Below are positions 1-8,522 of a stretch of DNA of 8,522 bases, piece after piece. Position numbers and translations under genes: made by a program. Below the pieces are notes generated by a model. It worked only from the letters and a program-made list of their open reading frames with translations, searched no databases and was not told the origin of the DNA. Position 1 is the first letter of the stretch, and each line of letters opens with the position of its first letter. The DNA comes from Candidatus Woesearchaeota archaeon (GTDB taxonomy: Archaea > Nanobdellota > Nanobdellia > Nanobdellales > CAZNIQ01): contig CAZNIQ010000026.1 of the NCBI GenBank assembly GCA_964573185.1, positions 1-8,522 of the forward strand, written 5' to 3'.

Positions 1-1768
1 ATTCTGGCTCTTTTTTAGAGGGGTCTTTATAAATAGTAAAATCAGCATAGCCCAATTTGATTGTTATACCTCTCTTAATTTCTTCAGAGTACGTATCTAC
101 CCACTTTCCAGTTAGCGCCTGAGTTAATGTAGTATTATGTACTAAAATGCCGTTTGCAAAGAAATTATGTGTTTTAGGAACATGTAAATCAATTATTTTT
201 CCTTTATAATATATCTTTTCAATTTTAGTAACTCTGTCATACCAAATATAGCCTAAATACTTTCTTTTAAGGTATAAATACAATTCTTTCTGTTCTTTTG
301 TTTTAATATGCTTTTTAACAAATTTGAAATATTTAATTAGCATAGAATATGTTATTCTCTTTTTCTTTAGAGCATCTCTAAATCCTAAATACCATGGTTG
401 CTTTTTAATTCCAGCTCTTAATAATCTATTTAATCTTTTGAATTCTTCTGGATTAATTGGAATACTATATTTTGTATATTTTCCAAATTTCTTTAACATT
501 TCTCTCAATTTCCTTTCTTTCTCTTTGGAAGCCAATCCAATTTTCTTAGCAAATAAATAAACGTTGTATCCGCTAATTACTAATTCATAATATTCTTTAC
601 CGTTAACAACTTTCTTTCTGATTTGAGATAGAATACCAAAATATAAAAGTAAGTGTTGTAAAATGATGATGTTTCTATAGCTTTTTTGTGTTACAATGAT
701 TTCTCCAGCTGTTTTGTTTACATCTGCTTCAAATGAGAAGAAATATCTTAAGAAAACTCTCTTAAGATTCCTTGGTAACTTAAGAATCCAATGTGGCAAT
801 TCTTTTGAAAGATTAAACTTTGCTTTTAGATATTCAACAAAGAGCTTTGAGTTTATATGATAATCCTTATCATTATAGTTAACAGTTATGACTTTAGAAT
901 GTAGCCATTGCAAAATTTCATCTAAAAGTTCTATTTCTTTCTTCTGACTTAAGCTAATCCTTTTATCAAATAGCGAACCTTCAGCATAAAACAAAGCCAA
1001 GAATTTTATTAAATTCTCGTCAATCTTAATGTCTTCAATTATTAAAGAATCTTGGTAGTTTTTGTTGATGATTATTACTTTATCTTTTAGATCTTCTAAT
1101 CTTATTTTCTCCTTAGCGAGGATTTTAACAAAAATAGATAGATCTTTGTAATTGCTTTTCCAGACTTTAAATGTAGATTGTATATCAGCTAAAGAAACGT
1201 GCATAATTGCTGCAAGAATCTTTGCTTCCTCTTCAGTTATTTTATCTTTCTCTAAAATCTTCTTGATATCCCTCCAATCTAGAACGATATACCCTTTTCT
1301 CTCTAAAATATCTCTCCACCTTGTATTTATGATTATTTTTTTAGAACTTTCCTTTAATTTTCTTAGAACTGCTACATAATCTCCTTCTTTTAAATCTTTA
1401 GCTTTAATCCAGACTAGATTTCCATCTCTATTTACTAAAAACGGATGATTTGGTGTTACAATAATTTCCTTTCCACTTTGCGTTATAATTTTATACATCT
1501 CTCCTTCATAATCTTCTATATAAACTAAAGGCTTTACCCTTTTTATTTTCCCATCTCTATCTAATGTATAAATGTAATATGGATATTCTTTTACTATATA
1601 ATTTTCTCCTTTCTCAATTGTTTTGTATCTCTCTGTTTCTTGAATTATTTCGTTCCCAGTTTTTATAGAATCATTTAGCAAAACAAAGCTTTCTGGATGG
1701 ATGCATTTTCCATGGTCTACATGGCCAATCATTACAATTGACAAGTCAGGATAGATTTTCTTTTTCAT
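1..1768 (-). CDS. eif2g: translation initiation factor aIF2 gamma subunit, N-terminal part (ORF open at left window edge), interrupted by an intein
   Basis: Hand translation of the minus strand from ATG at 1768..1766 is open all the way to position 2. The N-extein is [21 protein letters not shown] (G1/P-loop). After the intein the C-extein reads [44 protein letters not shown], matching the aIF2-gamma signature GHVDHGKTTL..ALTG.W....[13 protein letters not shown]. It is absent from the ORF track only because no stop lies inside the window. Confidence 0.85.
134..1705 (-). mobile_element. intein (524 aa) with LAGLIDADG homing-endonuclease domain inserted in the aIF2-gamma P-loop
   Basis: Starts with Cys (TGC, 1705..1703) directly after GHVDHGK. 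Block A is [11 protein letters not shown] and block B is IIVTPNHPF (TxxH). The two LAGLIDADG-type motifs are [10 protein letters not shown] (~1003..974) and [13 protein letters not shown] (~757..719). Block F is [16 protein letters not shown] and block G is ILVHN (Asn codon 136..134), followed by the +1 Thr (133..131). There are no internal stops or frameshifts. Confidence 0.85.
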
Positions 1769-3057: not shown

Positions 3058-3067
3058 AATTTTTTAA
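3058..3067 (-). promoter_or_regulatory. TATA-like box for tRNA-Leu (TTAAAAAATT on minus strand, -32..-23 from tRNA +1)
   Basis: AT-only decamer at the distance expected for an archaeal TATA box if transcription starts at tRNA nucleotide 1 (3035). The tRNA-Pro and tRNA-Met genes in this window show the same spacing. Confidence 0.4.
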
Positions 3068-3071
3068 CCTT

Positions 3072-5066: not shown

Positions 5067-5149
5067 TGCTAAATGACATTAAATTTTTAAATGTCTTACT
5101 ATTCAGTGATTAACCATAAAATATAACTTTTAAGTTTAACAATGTATTA

Positions 5150-5200
5150 ATGATGAGGGGTGCTGGGATACCGAAAATGAGGTTTGAGCCCCCTGTCTGA
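5150..5200 (+). ncRNA. candidate C/D box sRNA with degenerate internal boxes
   Basis: Perfect C box AUGAUGA (5150..5156) and D box CUGA (5197..5200) lie 40 nt apart, giving a 51-nt unit like the two clear sRNAs. The internal boxes are degenerate: D' CCGA (5171..5174) and C' AUGAGGU (5177..5183). The guides GGGGUGCUGGGAUA and UUGAGCCCCCUGU are GC-rich in an AT-rich spacer. Confidence 0.55.
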
Positions 5201-5229
5201 TTTTTAACTTTTAAATCTTCTGATTTTAC

Positions 5230-7875
5230 GTGAAGGATTTCATAAAAGAAATATTAGAGAAAGACAAGGAAATAATAGTTAAATATGTTGAGTTTCCAGA
5301 GGAGCCACCAGTTTATTCTGATTTTAAGTTTAAAAATCAAGAGGTAAATGAATTATTGGATAAATTGGGATTTAAATTATATTTACATCAAGTACAAGCT
5401 TTGGAAGCTTTATATAATGGTAAAAATGTTATTTTAACTACACCAACCGCTTCTGGAAAATCAGAAGTCTTTAGATTATATATTTTAGATCTTTATTTAT
5501 CCGACAAAAGAAACACTTTCTTACTAATTTACCCCACAAGAGCTCTTCTCTACGACCAATATGAAAAATTAAAAGAGAGATATTCTTTGGTTAGAGACTC
5601 CCCAAAAATAGGAATTCTTTTAGGAGATCTAACTTCCTGGGAGAAACAAGAAATAATAAAACAAAAACCAAACGTTATCTTAACTACACCTGATACTCTA
5701 CATTTATTTATTTTAAAGAATCATCAAGATTTTTCATGGTTCTTCAAAAACTTAAGGTTAATAGTTATAGACGAGTTACATACATATAAAGGAGTTTTTG
5801 GAACAAATGCTGCTTATCTCTTTAGAAGACTCTTTAGATTATTGGATTATTACTATAAAAATAGAAATTATCAAATAATTTGTCTTTCTGCAACTTTAAA
5901 GAATCCTATTGCCTTTGCTGAAAAGCTTTTAGGAAAAGATAATTTTGTTTTAATTGATAAGAGCTTTCATAAAAAGCCTAAAAGATATTTATTGATTTTA
6001 GATCCATCTGAAAAATATAGCAATCCGTTTATTTATTTAAAGAATCTCACATTAGATTTGATAAAACATAATATAAAGTCTTTAATTTTTGTTGAAACAA
6101 AAAGACAGACAGAGAAACTTAAATTAATGTTCTTTGACACAAATCTTCTGAATTTAATTGAAGTATATAAAGGATCGCTAACTAGGAAAACCCGCAAAGA
6201 AATAGAGAGAAAATTCAAGGATAATGAACTTCTAATTTTATTTACAACTTCTGCTTTAGAGTTAGGTATTGATATTGGCGATGTACAATGTGTTGTTAAC
6301 TTTGGTGTTCCTCCAGATGGTTTATTTTCTTTAATTCAAAGATTCGGTAGAACCGCAAGAATAAAAGAAGGCCTTAATATTTTAGTTTTAAGAGAAGATG
6401 CTTTAGACGCTTATTATAAAGAAAATGTAGACGAGTTAATCGAAAGAATAAGAAAGAATTTAATAGAAGAAATACCCGTAAACCTTGAAAACCCCTTTGT
6501 TGTAAAAAAGCACCTATTATATTTAATTAATGAATTTAGAGCTTTGCCTCTAAATATTTTAACAGATTATGAAAAGAAGATTTTGGAGGAACTAAAGAAA
6601 GAAGGTTACGTTGGGATTAGAAAAAATTGGTTTACTAATGAAGAATACGCCTATTTAAAAAGGAATATAAGCTATTCCGGAATAAGGAACATTGGGGAAG
6701 AAACTTATTATATAATAAAATACTCTGAAAAAATTAAGAGAAGAATTTTAGAGAAAAATGAAAAAGATCTTTATAGATACATTCAATTCTTGAAAATAAA
6801 GGGCATCATTTTGGAAGAAACTGATAAAAAAATATTCTATGAGCAACTTTTACCGGGCATGATTTATTTTTCTTTAGGAAGGCTTTATAGAGTTAAGGAG
6901 CATTTACTCTTAGGAAAAGTTAACTTTGTTTTTGTAGAGGAGTTAAGAACTAAAGAACCTTTAGAAACTAAACCTTTGTACAAAGAAGATGTACACATTT
7001 TGGAGATTTATGATGAGAAAAAGGTATTTGGGATACCTGTTTATCTTGCTAAATTAAGAATTAGAAGAATTTATGAGGGTTATATTTTGAAGAAAATAAC
7101 TTCTGAAAAAGATGAATATAATTATATAGGAGAATTTCATATATATGATAATCCATATATTTATGAATTTGAAACAAAGGGTATTTTCTTAGTTTTGGAT
7201 GAAAATTTGAAGGAAATCGAAGAAGAAGAATATAATATGTTTATGAAAAAGTTAGATAAATATTTGAAGAAACATAAGTTGGAAAAATTAAAAGATTTGA
7301 TTTTAATGTTTGTAAATTCAATAGACAAAGAAGAATTATATAATAAATACAGGGGTGGCACCACTAAAAGAATAATCAGAATGATTGAAAATTTCCTATC
7401 TAGATTTGGATTGGACGTTAATAAACATAAGAAACTGATATTTTACATTAAAAAGTTAATAGATTCATATTATGGATTCCAGAGTGGTTTGCACGCAATA
7501 GAACATAATATAATTAAAATATCACCTGTTGTTACAAATGTTGATTCTAGAGAGTTGGGAGGATATTCTTATGAAAGATATAAGACACTATCAGAATCTT
7601 CAGAAGTATCTAAACAATTTTTAGATAAACCCGTTATATTTATTTACGAAGGATATGAAGGTGGTGTAGGATTGGCTGAAATTCTTTTTGAAAACATTGA
7701 AAAACTTTTAATTAAGAGTAGGGAAAGTTTATTTAAGTGTAAATGTCTTGATGGTTGTCCTAGATGCATTTTATCACCAAAATGTGGAAATGCTAACGAA
7801 TTTTTAGATAAATATGCTGGAAGATTGATTTATAAAAGGTTGTTTGGAAATATTAAAAACGGGGCCGTAGGCTAG
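5230..7875 (+). CDS. SF2 DEAD/DEAH-box helicase with C-terminal DUF1998 / MrfA-type zinc-binding domain (YprA/MrfA/Hel112-like)
   Basis: 881 aa. Motif I TTPTASGKS, Ia YPTRAL.YDQ, II DELH, III SAT, V TTSALELGIDIG, VI QRFGRTAR. The C-terminal region reads GLHAIEHNI...ELGGYSY...CKCLDGCPRCILSPKCGNANEFLDK (four-Cys cluster plus N..LDK). The start is GTG at 5230: an in-frame stop lies at 5221..5223 and the first in-frame ATG is about 300 codons downstream. Confidence 0.85.
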   Translation: MKDFIKEILEKDKEIIVKYVEFPEEPPVYSDFKFKNQEVNELLDKLGFKLYLHQVQALEALYNGKNVILTTPTASGKSEVFRLYILDLYLSDKRNTFLLIYPTRALLYDQYEKLKERYSLVRDSPKIGILLGDLTSWEKQEIIKQKPNVILTTPDTLHLFILKNHQDFSWFFKNLRLIVIDELHTYKGVFGTNAAYLFRRLFRLLDYYYKNRNYQIICLSATLKNPIAFAEKLLGKDNFVLIDKSFHKKPKRYLLILDPSEKYSNPFIYLKNLTLDLIKHNIKSLIFVETKRQTEKLKLMFFDTNLLNLIEVYKGSLTRKTRKEIERKFKDNELLILFTTSALELGIDIGDVQCVVNFGVPPDGLFSLIQRFGRTARIKEGLNILVLREDALDAYYKENVDELIERIRKNLIEEIPVNLENPFVVKKHLLYLINEFRALPLNILTDYEKKILEELKKEGYVGIRKNWFTNEEYAYLKRNISYSGIRNIGEETYYIIKYSEKIKRRILEKNEKDLYRYIQFLKIKGIILEETDKKIFYEQLLPGMIYFSLGRLYRVKEHLLLGKVNFVFVEELRTKEPLETKPLYKEDVHILEIYDEKKVFGIPVYLAKLRIRRIYEGYILKKITSEKDEYNYIGEFHIYDNPYIYEFETKGIFLVLDENLKEIEEEEYNMFMKKLDKYLKKHKLEKLKDLILMFVNSIDKEELYNKYRGGTTKRIIRMIENFLSRFGLDVNKHKKLIFYIKKLIDSYYGFQSGLHAIEHNIIKISPVVTNVDSRELGGYSYERYKTLSESSEVSKQFLDKPVIFIYEGYEGGVGLAEILFENIEKLLIKSRESLFKCKCLDGCPRCILSPKCGNANEFLDKYAGRLIYKRLFGNIKNGAVG
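7829..7837 (+). promoter_or_regulatory. TATA-like box TTTATAAAA for tRNA-Pro, embedded in the helicase coding sequence (-32..-24)
   Basis: Consensus-like archaeal TATA sequence at the distance expected if transcription starts at tRNA-Pro nucleotide 1 (7861). There is no non-coding DNA upstream of this tRNA. Confidence 0.45.
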
Positions 7876-7931
7876 CGGCAGGCTGCCGGGCTTGGGACCC
7901 GGTGACCCGGGTTCGAATCCCGGCGGCCCCA
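7861..7931 (+). tRNA. tRNA-Pro (anticodon UGG), no intron, no encoded CCA
   Basis: GGGGCCG UA GGCU AGCGGCA GGCU G CCGGG CUUGGGA CCCGG UGAC CCGGG UUCGAAU CCCGG CGGCCCC A. It has a perfect 7-bp acceptor, a 5-bp anticodon stem, the loop CU-UGG-GA with G37, a 4-nt variable loop and a canonical T arm. Nucleotides 1..15 overlap the helicase 3' end, including its TAG stop (7873..7875). Confidence 0.9.
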
Positions 7932-7935
7932 TTTT

Positions 7936-7984
7936 ATGATGATTCAACCGAATACTGAATATGATGAAGGAGCGGCGTCTCTGA
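7936..7984 (+). ncRNA. C/D box sRNA (2'-O-methylation guide), directly downstream of tRNA-Pro
   Basis: C box AUGAUGA 7936..7942; 12-nt guide UUCAACCGAAUA; D' CUGA 7955..7958; spacer AUA; C' UGAUGA 7962..7967; 13-nt guide AGGAGCGGCGUCU; D CUGA 7981..7984. It is 49 nt long, the same layout as the sRNA at 2897..2945. Confidence 0.85.
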
Positions 7985-7988
7985 AAGA

Positions 7989-8000
7989 TTTTTAAATTAA
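7989..8000 (+). promoter_or_regulatory. TATA-like box TTTTTAAATTAA for the tRNA(CAU) 5' exon (-32..-21)
   Basis: AT-only element at the distance expected if transcription starts at 8021, the first nucleotide of the tRNA. Confidence 0.4.
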
Positions 8001-8052
8001 AATTAGATCTTATTTTAAAAGCCGCCGTAGCTCAGCCTGGTCAGAGCGCCCG

Positions 8053-8442
8053 TGGCCGCCCCCGCTCCTTTCCTAAAACTTAAGAAATTAGCGGAAGAAA
8101 CAGGAATACACATAAGTAACGGTAGTATGAATATTTATTAAGCTAAAAGAATAAAAGCATAGTATTGTTTAAATATAAAGTATTAGAATTACCTTTGGGT
8201 AAAAAATTAAATATACGTATTCCAGAGATTTTACACAAGATGAAAAGCTAATGAAAAGAGAGGAAGAGCTATCTTTATCCAAGGATAGAATTTACAAATA
8301 CGTCAATTATAGGGAAAGATATAAGCTTAAAATAAGTGGCATGAGCAAGTAAAAGACGTTCTTCAAGAAAATAGGGGAGTTCTAATCCGAAATATTTAAG
8401 AAAGTATAAGCGGTTGTTTTAGTAGCGGGGGCGGCCGGCGAA
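8053..8442 (+). other. 390-nt interruption at tRNA position 30/31 (very long non-canonical intron, or trailer + spacer + leader of two adjacent tRNA half genes)
   Basis: Canonical BHB motif. The outer helix is 8054..8066 (GGCCGCCCCCGCU) paired with 8424..8436 (AGCGGGGGCGGCC), 13 perfect bp. The 3-nt bulges are CG|U (8051..8053) and AA|G (8441..8443). The 4-bp central helix pairs CGCC (8047..8050) with GGCG (8437..8440). The exon-side helix pairs GAG (8044..8046) with CUC (8444..8446). Cleavage after the second bulge nucleotide joins G30 (8052) to G31 (8443). Confidence 0.75.
8390..8400 (+). promoter_or_regulatory. candidate internal TATA-like box AAATATTTAAG upstream of the 3' piece of tRNA(CAU)
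   Basis: It lies about -34..-21 from 8421..8424 (AGUAGCGGGGG..., purine start of the GC-rich leader). This is the same spacing as the TATA-like boxes of the three tRNA 5' ends in this window. Confidence 0.35.
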
Positions 8443-8449
8443 GCTCATA

Positions 8450-8479
8450 ACCGTAGGACTTTCCCTAGGTTCGTGGGAA
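8450..8479 (+). other. 30-nt canonical tRNA intron at position 37/38
   Basis: The central helix pairs C32-U33-C34-A35 (8444..8447) with UGGG (8474..8477), including one G-U pair. The bulges are UA|A (8448..8450) and AA|A (8478..8480), followed by the anticodon-stem strand CCGGG (8481..8485). The intron-internal outer helix is weak (UAGG 8454..8457 with CCUA 8464..8467), so this is a relaxed BHB. Confidence 0.7.
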
Positions 8480-8522
8480 ACCGGGAGGTCCCGGGTTCAA
8501 ATCCCGGCGGCGGCATTAAATT

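Follow-up and report, generated by a model that had tools for sequence, protein, structure and literature searches.

A putative three-piece tRNA(CAU) gene with a GC-rich clamp around a 390-nt interruption at position 30/31, in a Nanopusillaceae-like nanoarchaeote

We analyzed a stretch of 8,522 nucleotides (contig CAZNIQ010000026.1 of assembly GCA_964573185.1, deposited as Candidatus Woesearchaeota archaeon; hereafter the window), which carries close to its 3' end a tRNA(CAU) gene in three pieces. The original prediction, made from the letters of the sequence, had described the three pieces together with a clamp of 13 base pairs, an interruption of 390 nt at tRNA position 30/31 and an intron of 30 nt at position 37/38. 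All of these were confirmed, and the coordinates of the exons, arms, spacing and introns held when positions 7900-8522 were read again. Judged from its sequence, the locus is best explained as a functional elongator-type tRNA(CAU) gene with three exons in a Nanopusillaceae-like nanoarchaeote. As for the way in which the 390 nt are bridged, the original prediction had offered either an exceptionally long cis-intron or a cis-linked split tRNA, which is a sound reading of the sequence. We lean, if only just, towards an active promoter inside the interruption, by which the locus would consist of two adjacent and co-oriented half-genes like those of tRNA-Asp in Aeropyrum pernix, with leaky termination after the first half.

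Exon 1 comprises the 5' strand of the acceptor stem, the D arm, G26 and C27-G30, and exon 3 closes with the discriminator base A73, CCA not being encoded (Table 1). Runs of T7 and T5, which form a terminator, follow exon 3 past the end of the window, at positions 8527-8539 of a second contig, L001 (see below for the details). Joined to one another, exons 1, 2 and 3 give a tRNA of 75 nt that ARAGORN calls tRNA-Met(cat), in which the acceptor, D and T stems are perfectly paired, as is the 5-bp anticodon stem that the predicted cuts had been expected to rebuild. The tRNA is of the elongator type because it has G1-C72 and T54. It would carry Met or, if C34 is agmatidinylated, Ile as tRNA-Ile2; no Met-versus-Ile2 discriminator usable for archaea was found in the literature examined.

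The first interruption (8053-8442; 390 nt, 34% GC) is held by two arms lying 357 nt apart, which pair perfectly over 13 bp and extend to 16 nt with one mismatch. Six nucleotides, GGCGAA (8437-8442), stand between the 3' arm and the micro-exon. At the junction, a strict bulge-helix-bulge (BHB) motif of the type hBHBh', BHB 1, can be drawn with standard pairs only, in agreement with the succession of helix, 3-nt bulge, 4-bp helix, 3-nt bulge and helix proposed originally. The outer helix h pairs G22, A23 and G24 (8044-8046) with C32, U33 and C34 (8444-8446), and the inner helix h' is the 13-bp clamp with two more pairs. The strict structure has a free energy of -40.4 kcal/mol in a mini-substrate, within about 4 kcal/mol of the minimum free energy (MFE; -44.5), and the clamp is also present in the MFE fold of the entire 495-nt precursor. 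The complementarity of GGCG, beside the 3' bulge, to exon bases makes the junction look like a selected splice motif, unlike what a random insertion would be expected to produce.

Table 1. Positions of the features of the tRNA(CAU) locus and of other features treated in the text (window coordinates, unless another contig is named).
Feature	Positions	Strand	Remarks
Box A TTTAAA	7991-7996	+	Putative promoter of exon 1/5' half; starts 30 nt upstream of G8021
Exon 1	8021-8052	+	32 nt, GCCGCCGTAGCTCAGCCTGGTCAGAGCGCCCG; tRNA positions 1-30, the D loop having two additional bases
BHB 1, 5' bulge C29 G30/U	8051-8053	+	Predicted cut after 8052
5' clamp arm, core	8054-8066	+	GGCCGCCCCCGCT, preceded by T8053; 13 nt, perfectly paired
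5' clamp arm, full	8054-8069	+	16 nt with one mismatch; h' of BHB 1; comparable to a split-tRNA trailer
Polypyrimidine tract	8065-8074	+	CTCCTTTCCT; abuts the 5' clamp arm; candidate weak terminator of the 5' half
Spacer interior	8075-8394	+	AT-rich and purine-rich; function not recognisable
Box-A-like TTTAAG	8395-8400	+	At -29 from A8424, the first base of the perfectly paired 3' arm; candidate promoter, 3' half predicted to start at about 8424/8425
3' clamp arm	8421-8436	+	Comparable to a split-tRNA leader; AGCGGGGGCGGCC at 8424-8436 is the perfect reverse complement of the 5' core
BHB 1, central helix H, intervening strand GGCG	8437-8440	+	Pairs with C25 G26 C27 C28 (8047-8050), four G-C pairs
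BHB 1, 3' bulge A A/G31	8441-8443	+	Predicted cut after 8442
Exon 2 (micro-exon)	8443-8449	+	GCUCAUA (GCTCATA in DNA); tRNA positions 31-37, including the anticodon CAU
Intron 2	8450-8479	+	30 nt, canonical position 37/38; h-B-H at the 3' site, 5' site relaxed
Exon 3	8480-8515	+	tRNA positions 38-73: 3' strand of the anticodon stem, variable loop, T arm, 3' strand of the acceptor stem
Boxes of the C/D sRNA behind tRNA-Pro	C ATGATGA 7936-7942, D' CTGA 7955-7958, C' ATGATGA 7961-7967, D CTGA 7981-7984	+	
Boxes of the second candidate C/D sRNA	ATGATGA 5150-5156, CCGA, ATGAGG, CTGA 5197-5200	+	Full-length matches to Rfam sR35, sR42 and sR28, below threshold
5' piece in L095 (Desulfurococcales)	about 5989-6026	minus	Polypyrimidine run after the trailer, much as at the tRNA(CAU) locus

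The 3' site of intron 2 presents a proper h-B-H arrangement, which consists of the anticodon stem, an AA/A bulge and a helix H of CUCA/UGGG with one G-U pair. The 5' site is relaxed, with just 1 bp of h' beside the bulge or, alternatively, a 3x4 internal loop; such a relaxed form is cleaved by the (alpha-beta)2 and epsilon2 endonucleases (PMC4033280). Bases 32-35 form the central helix of this second motif, BHB 2. Bases 32-34 are needed in this helix and in the outer helix of BHB 1 alike. The motifs therefore exclude each other, and removal would be sequential, with refolding in between. Closely spaced archaeal introns that need sequential removal are a situation already known (PMC8450103).

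The maturation that we envisage would begin with GGCCGCCCCCGCU, which follows exon 1, annealing with its complement in front of exon 2 into the 13-bp GC helix. This helix would nucleate the strict BHB, in which exon bases 25-28 and GGCG make up the 4-bp central helix. The archaeal splicing endonuclease would then cut both 3-nt bulges and an RtcB-type ligase would join G30 to G31, while the 30-nt intron would be excised likewise in a separate step, with refolding between the two.

The architecture is found in real DNA and goes beyond chance. None of 300 shuffles of the region contained a 13-bp perfect inverted repeat, and the sequence of the clamp arm is unique in the contig and among the related loci compared. 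The contig L001 of ENA (9125 nt), an independent assembly, covers the window with 24 single-nucleotide polymorphisms (SNPs) and no indels; a single SNP falls in the tRNA locus, at position 8144 in the spacer. The two assemblies are collinear over the locus, and the architecture is thus not an assembly chimera; the same comparison is too shallow for covariation. A chance resemblance, or a chimera of unrelated tRNA fragments, is hardly credible. The source is a short metagenome contig, which would speak for such an artifact, but besides the collinearity of assemblies 24 SNPs apart and the outcome of the shuffles, there are perfect matches between the strands of the acceptor stem and of the anticodon stem, and likewise in the clamp and the BHB.

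As anticipated by the original prediction, the gene escapes standard scanners. It is reported neither by ARAGORN at default settings nor by the tRNA model of Rfam, and the long-intron mode of ARAGORN returns a wrong model, a tRNA-Pro (ggg) with an intron of 419 nt. Because the gene is invisible to these tools, an essential tRNA, the elongator tRNA-Met or tRNA-Ile2, would seem to be missing from the genomes of this lineage, which would be scored as incomplete.

In its composition, the spacer is like intergenic DNA. A search of it against Rfam, C/D families included, gave no match, and no pair of C and D boxes was found on either strand of 8053-8479. There was no GC island in the spacer, no open reading frame (ORF) longer than 33 aa and no ORF for a LAGLIDADG-type endonuclease. 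The 33-aa ORF (8251-8352) was rejected as a gene: no relatives were found among 1.84 billion representatives, an exact look-up recovered this contig only, and an exhaustive HMMER search returned the ORF itself and one match without an aligned stretch. The spacer was rejected as a structured RNA and as a host of a C/D sRNA as well, the fold z-score of -0.87 indicating no excess structure. It had no blastn match to phages and plasmids and no similarity to the other nanoarchaeal loci compared.

These results bear on the possibility that the locus is a relic, namely a tRNA(CAU) gene broken by foreign or intergenic DNA and silent since, with another copy serving the cell. Integration and rearrangement often take place at tRNA genes (PMC3218864, PMC4033280). 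The arms resemble terminal inverted repeats and, with a contig of 9.1 kb in view, another copy of the tRNA gene could sit elsewhere in the genome. A relic is nevertheless improbable, as the three exons are intact without any stem mismatch and the putative insertion is bounded by a strict BHB, with its GGCG helix and two 3-nt bulges, which a random insertion would not yield. A transposable element or miniature inverted-repeat transposable element was rejected: inverted arms are present, but no target-site duplication flanking them was seen by eye. No further copy of the arms or the spacer exists in the contig and the related loci compared, and att-like or tRNA-fragment repeats are lacking in the locus. 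The absence of phage and plasmid similarity and the position of the sole SNP between the two population variants, in the spacer, also disagree with a relic. In addition, tRNA genes are normally single-copy in nanoarchaeal genomes.

We then have to choose between half-genes and an intron. The 5' half gene would consist of the box A at 7991, exon 1, a trailer of 13-16 nt and the polypyrimidine tract. The 3' half gene would consist of TTTAAG at 8395, a start near 8424, a GC-rich leader of about 19 nt, the micro-exon, the short intron, exon 3 and the T7 terminator. Counting hexamers with at most one mismatch to TTTAAA as box-A-like, these start at -30/-32 from the mature 5' end of tRNA-Pro, at -32/-33 from that of tRNA-Leu and at -30/-31 from that of exon 1. 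The box A is TATAAA at -30 for tRNA-Pro (7831-7836) and TTAAAA at -32 for tRNA-Leu (3062-3068, minus strand). Box-A-like hexamers occupy 8 of 351 positions in the spacer, and the chance of finding one at -32 to -28 is 9-10%. A matrix of the transcription factor B recognition element (BRE) and TATA box, trained on nine gene starts of the contig, scored 4.5 bits at site 8385, compared with the leave-one-out scores of 4.0 for tRNA-Pro and 4.2 for tRNA-Leu. The start predicted from this site is at about 8423, and a start of the 3' half would lie 18-19 nt before the 3' junction.

The tract CTCCTTTCCT is the only polypyrimidine tract of at least 9 nt on the plus strand of 6876-8534. Eight pyrimidines at this site have p = 4.2e-4 in shuffles of the spacer and about 2% against the contig-wide background, and a similar tract, CTTTCCTCTCCTTC, comes after tRNA-Leu. 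A T4 run between tRNA-Pro and the small RNA (sRNA) of the C/D box type behind it, which has no promoter, is necessarily read through, and therefore short T or pyrimidine tracts are leaky. Altogether, as promoter-like and polypyrimidine signals occupy the positions expected of half-genes and the stop between them is weak, half-genes with leaky termination are favoured. Leaky termination after the trailer would probably leave a 495-nt read-through precursor, which likely coexists and is spliced in cis, so that the same tRNA would be produced by both routes.

Several observations weigh against this interpretation or parts of it. The strict BHB 1 uses the 3' strand of the D stem and needs the D stem to be melted. 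Two other sites in the spacer, 8070 and 8197, outscore 8385 with the trained matrix, and the TTTAAG signal is weak alone (p of about 0.1 in AT-rich DNA). CTCCTTTCCT holds just T3, which makes a poor archaeal terminator, and the plus strand of the spacer has no run of five or more T, a lack that an intron would need as well, although, given the composition, just about 0.3 runs of this length would be expected. Finally, no relative with the gene was found that could lend the clamp and the BHB support from covariation.

Some of these observations suit a pure cis-intron, in which 8021-8515 would be one transcription unit with the internal promoter unused, and the clamp-held intron, roughly three times the length of the longest archaeal tRNA intron on record, would be excised from the 495-nt precursor, probably as a circle. 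The pieces are adjacent and co-oriented. The absence of longer T runs, the mere T3 of the polypyrimidine tract, the evident read-through of T4 behind tRNA-Pro, and the p of only about 0.1 for the internal box-A-like element all fit with continuous transcription, and the clamp forms in the MFE fold of the whole precursor. Furthermore, ordinary cis-introns of several lineages are bordered by GC helices right after position 30 (described below), and archaeal rRNA genes are known to carry BHB introns several hundred nt long. In A. pernix, a full-length precursor of tRNA-Asp was also detected, and cis- and trans-splicing may coexist (Yamazaki et al., PMC4307357). On the other hand, according to Chan, Cozen and Lowe (2011; PMC3218864), archaeal tRNA introns range from 11 to 129 nt (median 15), those at the long end containing C/D sRNAs, of which the spacer has none; the only long case lacking an sRNA proved to be a pair of adjacent halves. 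Right where the 5' arm ends, a polypyrimidine tract (p = 4e-4 to 0.02) would be unexpected of an intron, and the box-A-like element is spaced as at real tRNA starts. We thus regard a pure cis-intron as unlikely, albeit a rival to be taken seriously, and retain the two half-genes with leaky termination as the reading we slightly prefer.

Fixed spacing of box A is how Nanoarchaeum equitans makes leaderless tRNAs without RNase P. The spacing of -30 to -33 at all three tRNA genes of the contig implies that the host may lack, or barely need, RNase P. A tRNA-Val gene (position 1828) of a more distant relative, L005, departs from the -30 rule and is uninformative for this organism. The genes for tRNAs and tRNA halves in N. 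equitans have a box A of TTTAAA about 26 nt upstream of the start (Randau, 2012; PMC3491384), a rule with which the box A of exon 1 agrees. Their terminators are polypyrimidine or T stretches, and the halves do not always have defined 3' ends (PMC3491384). Upstream of the 3' arm, a direct repeat matching at 13 of 15 positions was noticed between TATAAAAGGTTGTTT (7831-7845, in the promoter of tRNA-Pro) and TATAAGCGGTTGTTT (8405-8419), but it is at chance level for the region, and the copy at 8405-8419 is about 10 nt too close to the 3' arm to serve the leader. GGTTGTT is also present upstream of rtcA.

Half-genes standing next to one another have a precedent in the crenarchaeote A. pernix, of which tRNA-Asp, once annotated with a 121-nt intron, is in fact two adjacent co-oriented half-genes with an internal BRE/TATA element and a predicted start 20-25 nt before the 3' junction (PMC3218864). 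The tRNA(CAU) locus resembles it in having adjacent parts on one strand, a long apparent intron without sRNA and a BHB at the junction. It also shares a promoter-like element inside the gap, with a putative start about 20 nt before the 3' end and a GC-rich leader, and the possible coexistence of cis and trans routes (PMC4307357). In contrast to A. pernix, the junction lies at 30/31 instead of 37/38, the gap is 390 nt instead of 121 nt, the tRNA is of the CAU species and the 3' part bears an extra canonical intron; the evidence for a promoter is weaker.

The second system for comparison is tRNA-Lys(CUU), which is reportedly trans-split in N. equitans. In N. equitans and Staphylothermus, the split of this tRNA falls exactly at 30/31 and has a canonical hBHBh'; in Staphylothermus, 13 nt that pair perfectly in trans come after it (PMC3218864). 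The junction, the motif and the pairing of a GC-rich trailer and leader in N. equitans, S. marinus and S. hellenicus all recur at the tRNA(CAU) locus, and N. equitans belongs to the same phylum as the host of the latter. Unlike the tRNA(CAU) pieces, the halves of tRNA-Lys(CUU) lie at a great distance from each other, in S. marinus 4.5 kb with five intervening genes, and are without doubt transcribed separately; it is another tRNA species, and no extra intron has been described in its halves. The pieces of the tRNA(CAU) gene are 390 nt apart on one strand and not at distant loci as in the split genes of N. equitans, and the gene therefore fits only the adjacent subtype represented by A. pernix.

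N. equitans assembles six tRNAs from halves with GC-rich complementary ends (PMC3655853, PMC3218864, PMC3491384). Its trans-joined tRNAs are those for iMet, His, Lys, Gln and two for Glu, and its cis-spliced tRNAs are those for Ile, Met, Trp and Tyr (Podar et al., 2013; PMC3655853). The elongator tRNA-Met, which is probably the ortholog of the tRNA studied here, is interrupted by a 66-nt intron that contains a C/D-like RNA and a 6-bp GC hairpin, and this hairpin was considered by Randau as a possible origin of the clamps of split tRNAs (PMC3491384). Both are interrupted tRNAs in the same phylum, with interruptions matched in position at 37/38. The N. equitans gene has this single intron with its stable C/D-box-like RNA, whereas the tRNA(CAU) gene has the additional 390-nt interruption and no C/D boxes.

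The multi-intron and tri-split tRNAs likewise have two interruptions, with two BHB junctions enclosing a short middle piece that bears the anticodon. The former are said to occur in Thermoproteales and other archaea, and a tri-split tRNA-Gly is reported from Caldivirga maquilingensis. As at the tRNA(CAU) locus, closely spaced motifs in multi-intron tRNAs require sequential removal (PMC8450103), but their introns are tens of nt long, and the pieces of the Caldivirga tri-split tRNA are three separate loci. Exons 2 and 3 of the tRNA(CAU) gene are just 30 nt apart with a GC-rich intron in between, which leaves no room for a promoter; they are therefore not separate genes, and the gene is not tri-split. 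As the position of the junction, the length of the clamp, the adjacency of the pieces and the multiple interruptions each have a published precedent, we regard the locus as one of a known kind and not as a new mechanism.

The original prediction had looked to related genomes for a comparison of the locus, and this brought no support. The three closest helicase homologues (L003-L005; 65%, 52% and 50% identity), taken as anchors of synteny, have other downstream neighbours and no tRNA(CAU). Exact exon 1 was not matched in 185,579 species genomes, and neither exon 3 nor exon 1 with the clamp was found in viral contigs. A degenerate exon 1 had one match in the JGI metagenomes (L006), an unrelated, GC-rich crenarchaeal multi-intron tRNA. 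The L006 gene (3560-3715, minus strand), which shares the 32-nt pattern of the 5' end with exon 1, has several intervening sequences and is missed by ARAGORN.

We also scanned the species genomes with a pattern of the architecture (a D arm, five arbitrary nucleotides and nine G/C), which gave at least 119 loci, mostly chance matches in GC-rich bacteria. These loci served as a comparison set only, and an automated analysis of the distance between arms was too noisy and was left unused. Among the matches listed, none was nanoarchaeal, and short cis-introns with a GC helix right after position 30 and a short loop were seen in a tRNA-Lys(UUU) of Bathyarchaeia (arms CGCGGGCGG/CCGCCCGCG, about 50 nt apart), a tRNA-Ile(GAU) of Nitrososphaerales, a tRNA(CAU) of Pyrobaculum and a multi-intron tRNA of Thermoprotei. 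Thus, the GC clamp, put forward originally as the hallmark of split tRNAs, is certainly present but is not exclusive to them; since such helices flank ordinary cis-introns too, the clamp by itself does not identify a split gene. At the other extreme, one locus of Desulfurococcales (L095) and two of Thermoproteaceae (L011 and L076) have a 5' piece up to position 30 with a GC-rich trailer of 13 nt, for which no complementary partner was found within the 8-kb locus. From their sequences, the pieces are likely trans-split 5' halves of the kind known in Staphylothermus and Caldivirga, perhaps unannotated ones. The tRNA(CAU) locus, with 357 nt between its arms, falls between the short cis-introns and the trailers without a partner.

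The idea that the locus is an intermediate between intron-containing and split genes held in so far as the configuration itself is seen; it is not unprecedented, given tRNA-Asp of A. pernix and the 30/31 splits of tRNA-Lys(CUU) (PMC3218864). What is new is the nanoarchaeal host other than N. equitans, the tRNA species, the gap of 390 nt compared with 121-129 nt, and the presence alongside it of a second, canonical intron, so that a micro-exon of 7 nt is left for the anticodon. We consider it conceivable, at somewhat less than even chances, that the locus has been caught in the act of splitting or fusing, its halves still or already adjacent and matured both by read-through, as a record 390-nt BHB intron, and as independent transcripts. 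If true, a split or long-interrupted tRNA would for the first time be on record from a nanoarchaeote besides N. equitans, and the transition from intron to split gene could be tested directly in a single gene. Within Nanoarchaeota, split tRNAs have until now counted as peculiar to N. equitans, the terrestrial nanoarchaeon Nst1 of Obsidian Pool having none (PMC3655853). A clamp-bearing tRNA(CAU) interrupted at 30/31 would show that the trait, or a tendency towards it, is wider in the phylum. It would also be the second natural case of halves still adjacent, after tRNA-Asp of A. pernix, and this configuration is the pivot of the debate on whether introns became splits or halves are merging. No new mechanism is revealed, and the locus would hardly surprise a specialist; its value lies in annotation and in that debate.

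The window has 25-30% GC, with GC-rich RNA genes, and encodes RtcA, FEN-1 and a DEAD/MZB helicase. The closest named relatives of the helicase, about 50% identical to it, come from Nanobdella aerobiophila, Nanoarchaeota NZ13-N and metagenome-assembled genomes of Nanopusillaceae, and the host is therefore regarded as a nanoarchaeote, Nanopusillaceae-like. RtcB is encoded on the contig of a distant relative. The window begins with a truncated GTPase gene (2-1768, minus strand), which has an EF-Tu-type GTP-binding N-terminus and an intein with a LAGLIDADG homing-endonuclease domain. Downstream of the tRNA(CAU) gene, L001 continues with a gene for a cysteine- and tryptophan-rich protein (8555-9124, minus strand) bearing no Pfam domain. 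The sole relative of this protein detectable in 5.8 billion clusters is a paralogue of 62% identity from the same sample (L126, 304-756), and no tRNA lies beside this paralogue, which served as another anchor of synteny.

A C/D box sRNA (7932-7986, plus strand) sits directly behind tRNA-Pro and is followed by T5; about 10 archaeal C/D families of Rfam match it over the full length, below threshold. As it lacks a promoter of its own, it probably forms a dicistronic tRNA-sRNA unit, as in N. equitans, in which C/D sRNAs are found in dicistronic units behind tRNA genes (PMC3491384). The region of its D guide (7967-7975) is complementary over 9 nt to 8062-8070, which takes in the end of the 5' clamp arm and the start of the polypyrimidine tract, but about one such match is expected by chance in this region; a mismatch stands opposite the fifth guide position, contrary to the methylation rule, and the pairing is probably meaningless. 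A second candidate C/D sRNA (5146-5202, plus strand), also followed by T5, was noticed upstream of the helicase gene. In its listed form, the ORF of the helicase extends 15 nt into tRNA-Pro (7861-7875), and either its stop or C-terminus differs from that listed or the overlap is true. The SNPs between the window and L001 are clustered, with 9 in 124 nt of the helicase gene (6504-6627) and 4 in 42 nt at 1232-1273, which suggests local recombination or hypervariable segments between strains.

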